Position numbers and translations under genes: made by a program. Positions 1-10,914 of a DNA stretch of 26,293 nt are shown here, piece by piece. The number at the start of each line of letters is the position of its first letter. Position 1 is the stretch's first letter. Below the pieces are notes generated by a model. That model was not told the DNA's origin and did not search any database. It worked only from the letters and a program-made list of their open reading frames with translations. Origin of the DNA: a virus; UHGV virus genome UHGV-0165251; one strand, 5' to 3'.

Positions 1-52
1 TTATCAATTTGTTGCAACGAACAGGTCACTATCAGTCAAAATAAAATCATTA
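1..52. other. attL P' arm (partial); Int arm-type binding sites at 23..52; core lies just left of the window
   Basis: Sequence matches my recollection of the lambda attP P' arm (ttatcaatttgttgcaacgaacaggtcactatcagtcaaaat); three arm-type-like decamers (aggtcactat, cagtcaaaat, aaaatcatta) abut the int stop codon. Confidence 0.6.
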
Positions 53-1120
53 TTTGATTTCAATTTTGTCCCACTCCCTGCCTCTGTCATCACGATACTG
101 TGATGCCATGGTGTCCGACTTATGCCCGAGAAGATGTTGAGCAAATTTATCGCTTATCTGCTTCTCATAGAGTCTTGCAGACAAACTGCGCAACTCGTGA
201 AAGGTTGGCGGATCCCCTTCGAAGGAAAGACCTGATGCTTTTCGTGCGCGCATAAAATACCTTGATACTGTGCCGGATGAAAGCGGTTCGCGACGAGTAG
301 ATGCAATTATGGTTTCTCCGCTAAGAATCTCTTTGCATTTATCAAGTGTTTCCTTCATTGATATCCCGAGAGCATCAACATGCAATGTTGTAGGGATGGC
401 AATTTTTACGCCTGTTTTGCTTTGCTCGACATAAAGATATCCATCTACGATATCAGACCACTTCATTTCGCATAAATCACCAACTCGCTGCCCGGTAACA
501 ACAGCCAGTTCCATTGCAAGTCTTAGCCAACATGGTGATGATTCTGCTGCTTGATAAATTTTCAGGTATTCGTCAGCCGTAAGTCTTGATCTCCTTACCT
601 CTGATTTTGCTGCGCGAGTGGCAGCGACCGGGTTTGTTGTTATATGGCCTTCAGCTATTGCCTCTCGGAATGCATCGCTTAGTGTTGATCTGATTAACTT
701 GGCTGACGCCGCCTTGCCCTCGTCTATGTATTCATTGAGCATTGCCGCAATTTCTTTTGTGGTGATGTCTTCAAGTGGAGCATCAGGCAGGCCCCTCCTT
801 ATTGCTTTAATTTTGCTCATGTAATTTATGAGTGTCTTCTGCTTGATTCCTCTGCTGGCGAGGATTTTTTCGTAGCGATCAAGCCATGAATGTAACGTAA
901 CAGAATTATCACTGTTGATTCTTGCTGTCAGAGGCTTGTGTTTGTGTCCTGAAAATAACTCAATGTTGGCCTGTATAGCTTCAGTGATTGCTATCCTCCT
1001 GTCTCGGCCTAATCCAAACTCTTTACCCGTCCTTGGGTCCCTGTAGCAGTAATATCCATTGTTTCTTATATAAAGATTAGGGGGTAAATCCCGGCGCTCA
1101 TGACTTCGCCTTCTTCCCAT
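50..1120 (-). CDS. int: tyrosine integrase, lambda Int type
   Basis: 356-aa ORF starting MGRRRSHERRDLPPNLYIRNNGYYCYRDPRTGKEFGLGRDRR and ending with the HxxR...Y catalytic region; near-identical to lambda Int as I recall it. Confidence 0.95.
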   Translation of the reverse strand: MGRRRSHERRDLPPNLYIRNNGYYCYRDPRTGKEFGLGRDRRIAITEAIQANIELFSGHKHKPLTARINSDNSVTLHSWLDRYEKILASRGIKQKTLINYMSKIKAIRRGLPDAPLEDITTKEIAAMLNEYIDEGKAASAKLIRSTLSDAFREAIAEGHITTNPVAATRAAKSEVRRSRLTADEYLKIYQAAESSPCWLRLAMELAVVTGQRVGDLCEMKWSDIVDGYLYVEQSKTGVKIAIPTTLHVDALGISMKETLDKCKEILSGETIIASTRREPLSSGTVSRYFMRARKASGLSFEGDPPTFHELRSLSARLYEKQISDKFAQHLLGHKSDTMASQYRDDRGREWDKIEIK

Positions 1121-1316
1121 TTCTGATCCTCTTCAAAAGGCTACCTGTTACTGGTCGATTTAAGTCAACCTTTACCGCTGATTCGTGGAACAGATACTCT
1201 CTTCCATCCTTAACCGGAGGAGGGAATATCCTGCACTCGCGTACCCATCGACGAACTGTTTCAAGGCTTCTTGGGCGTCGCTGGCGTGCGTTCCACTCCT
1301 GAAGTGTCAAGTACAT
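1098..1316 (-). CDS. xis: excisionase Xis
   Basis: 72-aa product MYLTLQEWNARQRRPRSLETVRRWVRECRIFPPPVKDGREYLFHESAVKVDLNRPVTGSLLKRIRNGKKAKS inside the listed 102-aa ORF; overlaps the int start by 23 nt as in lambda. Confidence 0.9.
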   Translation of the reverse strand: MYLTLQEWNARQRRPRSLETVRRWVRECRIFPPPVKDGREYLFHESAVKVDLNRPVTGSLLKRIRNGKKAKS

Positions 1317-1328
1317 CGCAAAGTCTCC

Positions 1329-1342
1329 GCAATTACACGCAA
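1329..1342 (-). promoter_or_regulatory. CII-binding site (TTGC-N6-TTGC) at the -35 of pI
   Basis: Minus strand reads ttgcgtgtaattgc just upstream of the xis ATG, the lambda pI arrangement. Confidence 0.5.
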
Positions 1343-1364
1343 GAAAAAGCCGCATTGATGCGGC
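1341..1364 (-). terminator. rho-independent terminator-like hairpin
   Basis: Minus strand gccgcatcaatgcggc (6-bp stem, 4-nt loop) followed by tttttctt. Confidence 0.45.
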
Positions 1365-1442
1365 GATGGTAGGTCTGGATATCATTGAGCAATGAACAGG
1401 CCTCATCGAGTGTGAGGCGGTGTGATTTCTTTATTTCCACTC

Positions 1443-1658
1443 TTAATGTTTGTCAGTGAATGGTTTCTCCATCTCCATTAATGCCTTATTCATCTCATTT
1501 CGTAACTCTATAGCCATCCTGACGGCTTCAACTTGTGCAGGATGTCGGTTAATTGCTGGAGAATATCGTCGGGAACGAAGGATTGAGAAAACAAAGATAA
1601 TGCAAGCAACTATCTGAATTGCATTGCATGTTATTGATACAATGTGAATTGCAGCCAT
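1443..1658 (-). CDS. hypothetical small membrane protein (one N-terminal TM helix)
   Basis: 71-aa ORF with hydrophobic stretch IHIVSITCNAIQIVACIIFVFSIL then RSRR; sits in a ~300-bp insert absent from lambda as I recall it, bounded by two terminator hairpins; gggg 6 nt upstream of the ATG. Confidence 0.35.
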   Translation of the reverse strand: MAAIHIVSITCNAIQIVACIIFVFSILRSRRYSPAINRHPAQVEAVRMAIELRNEMNKALMEMEKPFTDKH

Positions 1659-1669
1659 CTACTACCCCC

Positions 1670-1690
1670 AAAAAAACCGCCATCAGGCGG
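1670..1690 (-). terminator. rho-independent terminator (lambda-type hairpin)
   Basis: Minus strand ccgcc-tgat-ggcgg followed by seven T; overlaps the stop codon of the orf55-like gene. Confidence 0.5.
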
Positions 1691-1850
1691 CTTGGTGTTC
1701 TTTCAGTTCTTCAATTCGAATATTGGTTACGTCTGCATGTGCCATCTGCGCCCACAGCATCCAGTGGTCATAGCAGTCGTTGATGTTCTCTGCTTCGATA
1801 ACTCTGTTGAATGGTTCTCCATTCCATTCACCTGTTACTCGGAAGTGCAT
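1683..1850 (-). CDS. small hypothetical protein, lambda orf-55-like
   Basis: Own translation of the minus strand: MHFRVTGEWNGEPFNRVIEAENINDCYDHWMLWAQMAHADVTNIRIEELKEHQAA (55 aa); below the ORF-track cutoff; DNA matches the lambda region next to xis as I recall it. Confidence 0.5.
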   Translation of the reverse strand: MHFRVTGEWNGEPFNRVIEAENINDCYDHWMLWAQMAHADVTNIRIEELKEHQAA

Positions 1851-1922
1851 TTATCATCTCCATAAAACAAAACTCGCCGTAGCGAGTTCAGATAAAAGAA
1901 ATCCCCGCGAGTGCGAGGATTG

Positions 1923-8435: not shown

Positions 8436-8741
8436 TCATCCCTCATACAGTGGTTTGCTGCCTAATTTCATTTTCTGGCGACCAACACAAGTCACACCCA
8501 TTTCACTGCGTGGCTTGCGGTAGTAAATACGATTCTGTTTACGCTCGACTTCTTCTGACTTCTTGCAGCGAAGGCTTCCGAGTGATGCTGCTTTATCTGC
8601 TCTGACGCAACCAGAGAGCTTTAGCGCAATTTTTCGCGCCAGTCGCTGCTCTTGCATTGCCTGTTCACGTTGAGCCTGTCTGCGTGCTCTGCGGCGATTT
8701 CTGGCGTTATCGTCAGCCAGATATGTAATGACTACTGTCAT
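8436..8741 (-). CDS. N: N-type transcription antiterminator
   Basis: N-terminal arginine-rich motif NARNRRRARRQAQRE; C-terminal YRKPRSEMGVTCVGRQKMKLGSKPL resembles lambda N (YSKPGERGITCSGRQKIKGKSIPLI). Confidence 0.8.
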   Translation of the reverse strand: MTVVITYLADDNARNRRRARRQAQREQAMQEQRLARKIALKLSGCVRADKAASLGSLRCKKSEEVERKQNRIYYRKPRSEMGVTCVGRQKMKLGSKPLYEG

Positions 8742-9494: not shown

Positions 9495-10211
9495 TCAAAC
9501 CAGCCTTAGTTTTGTCTCAATTGCAACGCCTATAATCTTGCAGTTTCCATTGATTGGCACGAGAGGCCATGCAGGGTTAAGTCCCTTGAGGTATTTATTT
9601 CCTCCGTCGATTATCAGCTTCTTGAATGTTGCCTCGTTAGAGTCAGAAAGTTTTGCTATGACCAAGCTGCCGTTGATCGCCTCCCTTCCGGTATCGAAAA
9701 GAACGAATGTTCCCTCTGGAATGCTTAACCCAACCGGTGCCGTCATTGAATCACCTTCCACTTTAAGCCAGAACGCATTACCTTGAATATGCGCGTCAGA
9801 CTCAAGCCAAACATCTATGTCTTTAATGGTGTATGGTTCGCATGCTTCACACCACGAGCCAGCCTGGATACTGCTTAACACCGGATACCTCTTTCCTGCT
9901 CTGTATTCCCCTGCATACCTTACGTTGGCATCGCTCTTAAGGCTTTCTGCCTGTTCTGCAACCTTGGCAGCAATTGACTGGCTAAAATCAGCAATTGAGA
10001 CTTGCAACAATCGTGCAAAACCAGATGCAACCTCAACGTTTAGCGCATTTCTGCCATTAAGATAATGCCCTACCGCTCCTTGGGTGATACCCAGTTCATC
10101 AGCGATTGAGTATTGGGTTATTCCCAATTCTTTCTTTTTTGACTCATACAAAGCCTTAAGCCGCTTAGCGTCTTCCAGCTGTTCTGTCGTCAGTGATTTT
10201 TTATTTTCCAT
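9495..10211 (-). CDS. cI: CI repressor (HTH domain plus LexA/S24-type autocleavage domain)
   Basis: 238 aa; N-terminal HTH (ITQYSIADELGITQGAVGHYLNG), C-terminal GDSM serine and K dyad region (GDSMTAPVG...VIAKL...TFKKL). Confidence 0.9.
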   Translation of the reverse strand: MENKKSLTTEQLEDAKRLKALYESKKKELGITQYSIADELGITQGAVGHYLNGRNALNVEVASGFARLLQVSIADFSQSIAAKVAEQAESLKSDANVRYAGEYRAGKRYPVLSSIQAGSWCEACEPYTIKDIDVWLESDAHIQGNAFWLKVEGDSMTAPVGLSIPEGTFVLFDTGREAINGSLVIAKLSDSNEATFKKLIIDGGNKYLKGLNPAWPLVPINGNCKIIGVAIETKLRLV

Positions 10212-10518: not shown

Positions 10519-10561
10519 CGCTCTTTAACAGTCATGGTCCTCATTCCCGCCGAAATGCGGG
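10519..10561 (+). promoter_or_regulatory. nutR (boxA cgctctttaa, boxB cccgccgaaatgcggg)
   Basis: Immediately downstream of cro; boxB identical to the nutL copy. Confidence 0.65.
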
Positions 10562-10569
10562 AATACAAC

Positions 10570-10600
10570 GCGCATAAGTTGATGCGCATAACTTCTTATT
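10570..10600 (+). terminator. tR1-like hairpin (gcgcat-aagttg-atgcgc)
   Basis: 6-bp stem followed by a moderately T-rich tract between nutR and cII. Confidence 0.3.
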
Positions 10601-10620
10601 TGTTAAGGAAATACTTACAT

Positions 10621-10914
10621 ATGGTTCGTGCAAACAAACGCAACGAGGCTCTAAGAATCGAGAGTGCGTTGCTTAACAAAATCGCAATGCTTGGAACTGA
10701 GAAGACAGCGGAAGCTGTGGGAGTTGATAAGTCGCAGATCAGCAGGTGGAAGAGGGATTGGATTCCAAAGTTCTCAATGCTGCTTGCTGTTCTTGAATGG
10801 GGCGTCGTCGACGACGATATGGCTCGATTGGCACGACAAGTTGCTTCGATTCTCACCAATAAAAAACGCCCGGCGGCAACCGAGCGTTCTGAACAAATCC
10901 AGATGGAATTCTGA
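10621..10914 (+). CDS. cII: CII transcriptional activator
   Basis: 97-aa product MVRANKRNEALRIESALLNKIAMLGTEKTAEAVGVDKSQISRWKRDW... near-identical to lambda CII as I recall it. Confidence 0.9.
   Translation: MVRANKRNEALRIESALLNKIAMLGTEKTAEAVGVDKSQISRWKRDWIPKFSMLLAVLEWGVVDDDMARLARQVASILTNKKRPAATERSEQIQMEF
10630..10643 (-). promoter_or_regulatory. pRE CII-binding site (ttgcgtttgtttgc on minus strand)
   Basis: TTGC-N6-TTGC direct repeat inside the cII 5' end, antisense orientation. Confidence 0.5.

Follow-up and report, generated by a model that had tools for sequence, protein, structure and literature searches.

A 71-codon open reading frame between orf55 and xis of a lambdoid prophage, termed ORF71 here, is, judged by comparison with its relatives, a real protein gene under protein-level selection. 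The prophage makes up the whole stretch of DNA that was analysed (26,293 nt, hereafter the window). ORF71 is one occupant of a variable slot, an ordinary accessory gene and no self-contained toxin cassette. Taken together, we regard it as rather probable that ORF71 is a genuine accessory gene of the exo-xis region, that it is expressed from pL in dependence on N, and that its product acts through intramembrane contacts of a membrane helix; membrane topology, pL/N-dependent expression and intramembrane contacts are the three parts of this reading that we infer.

A lambda-type int occupies the left end of the prophage (50-1120, minus strand), and the other features that define the locus are collected in Table 1. 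The 421 bp around the ORF71 locus were 100% identical to E. coli strain E9, whose prophage adjoins ybhC, the lambda attachment site. Rightward of ORF71, on the same strand, come an ea22-like gene and further early-left genes, and the gene order of int, xis, ea genes, N-like, cI-like and cII genes places ORF71 in the promoter-distal part of the leftward early (pL) operon, at its end. Its start codon is an ATG at 1658-1656 on the minus strand. Since the cII-box and pI lie downstream of ORF71, pI transcripts would not include it. The 101-aa product of the N-like gene is a candidate N-type antiterminator with the arginine-rich motif NARNRRRARRQAQ, which is relevant to read-through of both terminators described below; its C-terminal half presumably resembles N of phage 21.

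Table 1. Position, strand and basis of assignment of features at the ORF71 locus and in the early region of the window
Feature	Position	Strand	Basis
xis, lambda-type excisionase gene	1098..1316	minus	Pfam Exc, E=4e-41; annotated as excisionase in E. coli E9, whose locus is 100% identical
cII-box TTGC-N6-TTGC of the pI promoter	1329..1342	minus	identical sequence annotated in phage 434
Hairpin 1, predicted intrinsic terminator, shortly 5' of the pI promoter and xis	1341..1364	minus	terminator scan
Non-coding relic of a P22-type (HTH_17) xis, first ~20 codons	1368..1431	minus	alignment to the intact xis of L041, 4228-4599
ORF71, 71-aa protein gene	1443..1658	minus	ORF list, comparative evidence, PHROG 15342, AlphaFold model
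Shine-Dalgarno-like GGGGG	1665..1669	minus	six bases 5' of the ORF71 ATG
Hairpin 2, predicted intrinsic terminator at the orf55 end	1670..1691	minus	read directly from the sequence
orf55 homologue (lambda lambdap35)	1683..1850	minus	PHROG 676, E=2e-39
N-like protein, arginine-rich motif	8436-8741	minus	same strand as ORF71, ea genes, xis and int
cI-like repressor	9495-10211		
cII	10534-10914	plus	

The earlier note on this DNA had described a 71-aa ORF between two hairpins, and this ORF was confirmed. Dozens of comparable ORFs were listed, so that a frame of 71 codons is by itself not above chance, and its reality has to come from comparative evidence. Apart from the ORF71 types, an exhaustive phmmer search against 1.84 billion representatives returned one spurious repeat protein and nothing else. 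The sole distant match was a 74-aa protein (P0004, here ORF74 or type B; 46% identity, E=3e-11), which is listed by NCBI as an E. coli hypothetical protein. Its gene is the last before xis-int in a lambdoid/P22-like E. coli prophage near fimZ-type and fimbrial genes. The ORF, for which conservation nowhere at all had been envisaged as one outcome, thus has a relative at the same position, and the two differ in the manner expected of purifying selection. Across 71 aligned codons of type A (ORF71) and type B, pN was 0.34 and pS 0.86, the latter being saturated. Within the gap-free part (codons 1-67), differences at codon positions 1, 2 and 3 numbered 28, 21 and 42 (chi-square p=0.001). Amino-acid identity was 31/67, whereas 20,000 neutral simulations averaged 17.6 and never exceeded 28 (P<5e-5). 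A six-frame check found the sense frame alone open in both types, with 2-8 stops in each of the other five. Furthermore, ORF71 matched PHROG 15342 from end to end (E=2e-52, with residues 1-71 aligned to the whole of a 71-position profile), and ORF74 matched the same family with E=2.5e-18. The deep constraint between the types, the single shared open frame and the PHROG match together argue that ORF71 is a real gene. The comparative case is one deep pairwise comparison, since there are no more than two sequence types and both come from E. coli/Shigella phages.

Within type A, 46 loci of at least 94% identity were assembled from viral, metagenome and genome collections. It is among these that the opposite idea finds part of its evidence, namely that the ORF arose by chance or is decaying, in debris left by recombination between orf55 and xis. 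Variation in the type-A ORF was near-neutral, with 12 synonymous, 23 non-synonymous and 1 stop-type change (the last affects two bases of one codon and creates no real stop) where 8.6 synonymous changes were expected (P=0.12). The variable sites fell on codon positions 1, 2 and 3 in the numbers 10, 10 and 16, and population dN/dS over the 46 loci detected no selection among type-A copies. Debris would also agree with the silence of annotation, as PGAP made no gene call at ORF71 in any of 79 E. coli genomes, the GenBank records of phages IME10 and Sf101 are blank there, and neither Pfam nor NCBIfam has a family for it. Truncated copies exist as well, and the neighbouring 64 bp truly are a gene relic (both described below). 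Nevertheless, we consider the debris explanation very unlikely: the protein-level constraint between types A and B is strong, one open frame has been retained across saturated synonymous divergence, and none of the 46 type-A loci has a disrupted ORF. The Shine-Dalgarno sequence is retained too, as GGGG or GGG in type-A variants, with AGGAG five bases 5' of the start in type B. The sole indel inside the type-A ORF is 6 bp long and in frame, which is weak evidence because it arose by slippage of a 6-bp repeat.

Both hairpins on either side of ORF71 had been placed on the minus strand, and direct reading of the sequence found them there. Hairpin 1 reads GCCGCA-TCAA-TGCGGC at 1364-1349, followed by TTTTT at 1348-1344; its 6 pairs (5 G-C), 4-nt loop and five T have the make-up of a rho-independent terminator, and the records of phages 434 and HK97 annotate a terminator at the homologous site. 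Hairpin 2 reads CCGCC-TGAT-GGCGG at 1690-1677, followed by seven T at 1676-1670, and with 5 G-C pairs and a 4-nt loop it is likewise a predicted rho-independent terminator. The stop codon TGA of orf55 sits inside its loop. The terminator scan, which counted 7 terminator-like sites within 1000-2300 as against 0.9 +/- 1.0 in shuffles, lists hairpin 1 on the minus strand and hairpin 2 as read on the plus strand (1677-1690); for hairpin 2, the minus-strand form and its seven-T tail were taken from the sequence and not from the scan. The name 'tL3' had been considered for hairpin 2 and was dropped, the position of tL3 being unconfirmed. Two further tandem terminator-like hairpins lie just upstream of orf55 (1870-1889 and 1900-1921, minus strand), with sub-threshold Rfam matches to rsmX, the Leu leader and the rimP leader. 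The stem-loop of hairpin 2 is identical to the single terminator of lambda between orf55 and xis, and ARNold predicted the same lambda sequence as terminator 't5' (PMC4195576).

The view that the two hairpins were duplicated by an insertion did not hold. They are similar, but each belongs to a different mosaic module, hairpin 2 travelling with orf55 and hairpin 1 with the xis relic. Nor can the whole insert be taken as a gene cassette, since the last ~64 bp before hairpin 1 are the relic of a P22-type xis. This relic aligns closely with the 5' end of the type-B xis, but has lost its ATG and gained a 1-nt insertion. By its alignment, then, the 1368-1431 segment is a fossil of a P22-type xis, neither a spacer nor a part of a cassette. 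The hairpin GCCTCACACTCGATGAGGC at 1400-1418, which was flagged by the terminator scan, is incidental and lies inside the former xis coding sequence. In the type-B locus the intact 123-aa excisionase (MESHSLTLDEACAFLKISRPTATNWIR...) starts 2 nt past the ORF74 stop, matches HTH_17 and has 78% identity to P22 Xis. Hairpin 1 and the relic also precede the lambda-type xis of phages 434 (L002) and HK97 (L039), which lack ORF71 and have these two elements in common with the ORF71 locus. The well-studied int-xis regions of 434 and HK97 therefore carry the fossil of a displaced xis. The relic documents swapping of integration modules onto one early operon, with joints in the first ~20 xis codons or in terminator T-tracts.

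The segment was said to be absent from lambda. Comparison of the two loci bears this out: orf55 and xis are spaced 39 bp apart in lambda, and the window has 327 bp more at this junction. The single hairpin of lambda consists of the hairpin 2 stem-loop joined to the hairpin 1 T-tract and the sequence downstream of it. The lambda state may have arisen by loss, through recombination between two similar terminators, or the segment may never have been present. Elsewhere the slot between orf55 or eaG and xis is filled differently, which marks it as variable: it holds eaC in P22 (between eaG and xis), ORF114 in 434/HK022, gp37 in HK97 and nothing in lambda. ORF71 shares the slot with eaC and ORF114 and has no homology to either, ORF114 being a member of PHROG 1229 and EaC a protein of 211 aa. 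In the P22 record (L055 826-1348), a C1-activated antisense 'aI RNA' is annotated across eaC.

Downstream, type-A ORF71 is joined to at least four integration modules, namely a lambda-type module, IntS/TorI, a thrW-side module with an HTH excisionase, and AlpA. The joints lie within the xis fossil or at the hairpin 1 T-tract. With the lambda-type and IntS/TorI modules, ORF71 is followed by hairpin 1; with AlpA it is followed by another terminator-like hairpin. In the thrW-side context there is no terminator between ORF71 and the next gene, and type B is likewise without one.

It had further been suggested that a gene set between terminators might be expressed independently of pL. Promoter prediction gave no support to this, as no sigma-70-like promoter was found on either strand within 1000-2300 at standard stringency. 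The best site in a relaxed consensus scan lies inside orf55, matches at 8/12 positions and has a 15-nt spacer. The type-B gene is wedged into its operon, starting 2 nt past the upstream stop and ending 2 nt before the xis ATG, with room for neither a terminator nor a promoter around it. The exo-xis genes are reported to be early genes transcribed from pL (PMC4195576, PMC8614690). Given that no promoter was found and that the type-B relative is so tightly packed, ORF71 is most likely transcribed from pL once N-type antitermination overrides the orf55 terminator. A point against this reading is that the upstream terminator would also be compatible with a separate transcription unit, and a weak or non-sigma-70 promoter may have escaped the scan.

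Such a separate unit has a known counterpart in the 'moron', a concept reportedly due to Hendrix and colleagues in their comparisons of HK97 and HK022. ORF71 would then be an independent, terminator-insulated gene with its own weak promoter active in the lysogen, e.g. a superinfection-exclusion factor or a membrane toxin. Like morons, it is an extra gene relative to a close relative, being present here and absent at the same junction in lambda, and it has a GC content of 38.9%, below the 47% of its flanks and the 47-49% of orf55 and xis. An intrinsic terminator is predicted at each side of it here, but the downstream one, hairpin 1, follows ORF71 in some contexts only and also occurs in phages that lack ORF71. 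The predicted small single-pass architecture also fits, and several exclusion proteins are small single-pass membrane proteins. Unlike morons, however, ORF71 has no promoter of its own by the consensus scan, and the type-B relative is integral to its operon, with 2-nt gaps and no flanking terminators or other signals. The thrW-side context, with no terminator past ORF71, also speaks against insulation, and PADLOC matched no defence family at E<=10 for either type. We therefore regard a moron as unlikely, and the exclusion idea in particular is weakened by the failure to find a prophage promoter.

A structured non-coding RNA is not indicated either, since the folding of the insert (z = -1.4) and of its 3' part (z = -1.1) was no more stable than that of shuffles. 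Rfam gave sub-threshold matches only within 1000-2300 at E<=10. One of these, isrK at 1670-1730, was rejected, as its score of 18 bits is below the gathering score (50) and it corresponds to the terminator hairpin.

An antisense-controlled small toxin, in the manner of type I toxin-antitoxin systems, was considered in view of the extended -10-like element TGATACAAT on the plus strand (1635-1643). This element lies antisense to the ORF71 start and faces the hairpin at 1677-1690, which is also terminator-like on the plus strand. An RNA made from it would stop at this hairpin, be ~45 nt long and cover the ORF71 ribosome-binding site, and the ORF71 product is small and hydrophobic. Natural variants, however, alter hexamer positions 1638-1640, and 2 of the 3 changes damage the motif, so that the TGATACAAT site is probably non-functional. 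No comparable motif was seen by eye in the type-B gene, the plus-strand T-run past the hairpin is poor, and no Rfam family was matched. Typical type I toxins are, moreover, unlike a 71-aa protein with a 40-residue soluble tail. We judge this explanation to be highly improbable.

The predicted protein agrees with the architecture that had been proposed for it, an N-terminal transmembrane helix followed by a basic, charged tail; hydropathy, charge count and an AlphaFold model, all of them predictions, bear it out. Residues ~2-27 are strongly hydrophobic, with a Kyte-Doolittle maximum of 2.4-2.8 over ~6-27. Right after the helix there are 4-6 K/R as against one acidic residue, and by the positive-inside rule these basic residues would put the C-terminus in the cytoplasm (N-out/C-in). 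The AlphaFold model, computed from a shallow alignment of five sequences, has helices at 2-31 and 40-63 with a loop between them (mean pLDDT 79). ORF71 is thus predicted to encode a single-pass inner-membrane protein of N-out/C-in topology, whose second helix would be cytoplasmic and amphipathic. A Foldseek search of the model against viral structures gave no match, a two-helix model being too simple to inform such a search.

Between types A and B, 30 positions are invariant. These include H5, S8, C11, N12, Q15 and C19 in the membrane helix, an HPAQ motif (residues 39-42) within the basic loop, and A45, V46, A49, L52, R53, E55 and M56 in the second helix. H5, S8, N12, Q15 and C19 form a polar stripe within an arc of ~80 degrees on one helix face. 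A stripe of this sort is the kind of surface used in intramembrane helix-helix association, which suggests that the protein may act by such contacts.

On this basis we propose that ORF71 is an accessory gene of low GC content, situated where the leftward early ('exo-xis') operon approaches xis, and that it has no promoter of its own but is transcribed from pL after an N-type antiterminator has let RNA polymerase pass the orf55 terminator. Its accessory character shows in the low GC content, the small number of E. coli genomes that carry it, the at least four int/xis modules joined to it and the varied occupancy of its slot. Being dependent on pL and N, the protein would be made early after induction or infection, at the same time as the other host-modulating 'ea' proteins, and would be missing from the quiescent lysogen. 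Its membrane helix could use the polar face for self-assembly or for docking onto a host membrane protein, and the cytoplasmic HPAQ-helix tail would be the effector or regulatory part.

The closest known system is the set of exo-xis genes of lambda and Stx phages (orf60a, orf63, orf61, orf73, ea22, ea8.5, orf55), which lie in the same segment and on the same strand, from exo to xis. They are small, dispensable, variable in content between phages and, as reported, expressed early from pL (PMC4195576, PMC8614690). ORF71 comes straight after orf55, the final gene of this set in lambda (PMC8614690). The exo-xis proteins were modelled as soluble, with suggested roles in transcription (PMC8614690), whereas a membrane anchor is predicted for the ORF71 product, which is unrelated to them in sequence. 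ORF71 would thus add a membrane-anchored member to a poorly understood accessory region to which a role in the lysis-lysogeny decision has been ascribed in lambda and in Shiga-toxin phages.

Small host-targeting proteins encoded in the early-left operons of prophages include lambda Kil and CIII, Rac KilR, and DicB and YdfD of Qin. Some of them work on or within the inner membrane: CIII acts on FtsH via an amphipathic helix, and YdfD acts via an N-terminal membrane helix. ORF71 belongs to the same class of operon, but the resemblance is one of kind only, as no sequence relatives were found among these proteins. In the same way, no sequence relationship to Kil, KilR, DicB, YdfD, holins, or exclusion or defence proteins was detected, and a sequence search of the PDB gave no credible match. 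The toxin, Kil-like and exclusion roles raised in the earlier note may still apply, though no specific evidence favours any of them. PHROG 15342, which ORF71 matches over its full length, is itself a family without a name, a function, or a Pfam or NCBIfam counterpart.

A bolder possibility is that ORF71 and ORF74 are the first of a new phage membrane-protein family whose function is linked to that of the adjacent xis. It draws on the unrearranged context, where 2 nt separate the end of the gene from the xis ATG, and we hold it to be quite unlikely. If it were true, ORF71/74 could couple prophage excision, or the choice between lysis and lysogeny, to a component of the host membrane; the polar stripe would bind an inner-membrane protein, for instance a protease or transporter, and the HPAQ-helix tail would be the effector. 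Apart from this, nothing at the locus would surprise a phage specialist. Our preferred reading remains that of an exo-xis accessory gene expressed from pL.

The range of ORF71 is narrow and confined to E. coli and Shigella phages. ORF71 DNA was found in 79 of 5,426 complete E. coli genomes (1.5%) and also in phages IME10 and Sf101, and no match to the type-B DNA was found among the complete E. coli genomes. Scanning 185,579 genomes of GTDB species representatives with the protein and the alignment did not detect ORF71, and a profile search of 5.8 billion proteins found no members outside four clusters. ORF71 is a concrete example of the systematic under-annotation of small membrane proteins.

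Two loci, L037 and L054, had been taken as 64%-identical homologues and were rejected as such. L037 is a truncated copy that contains the C-terminal half only, and L054 agrees with L037 both in its 64% match, over residues 5-71, and in the sequence downstream. A third, L038 (48% over 32 residues), was set aside as marginal. The truncated copies (L037 3120-3215, L054 and E. coli H109-H115) begin at about codon 36 (NRHPAQ...) and are fused to unrelated DNA. An IS3-type transposase gene lies near the copy in L037, and those in the genomes fall under 'DNA ejection protein' or 'Ea22-like' annotations. The common breakpoint suggests that one recombinant lineage has spread.

The type-B loci offer a further observation. 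The gene upstream of the type-B relative (L041 3156-3998, L042 1925-2767), for which Pfam gave no match in L041, is 280 aa long in one locus and is represented by 206 aa plus 61 aa in the other, and the content of the slot thus differs even between near-identical type-B prophages.
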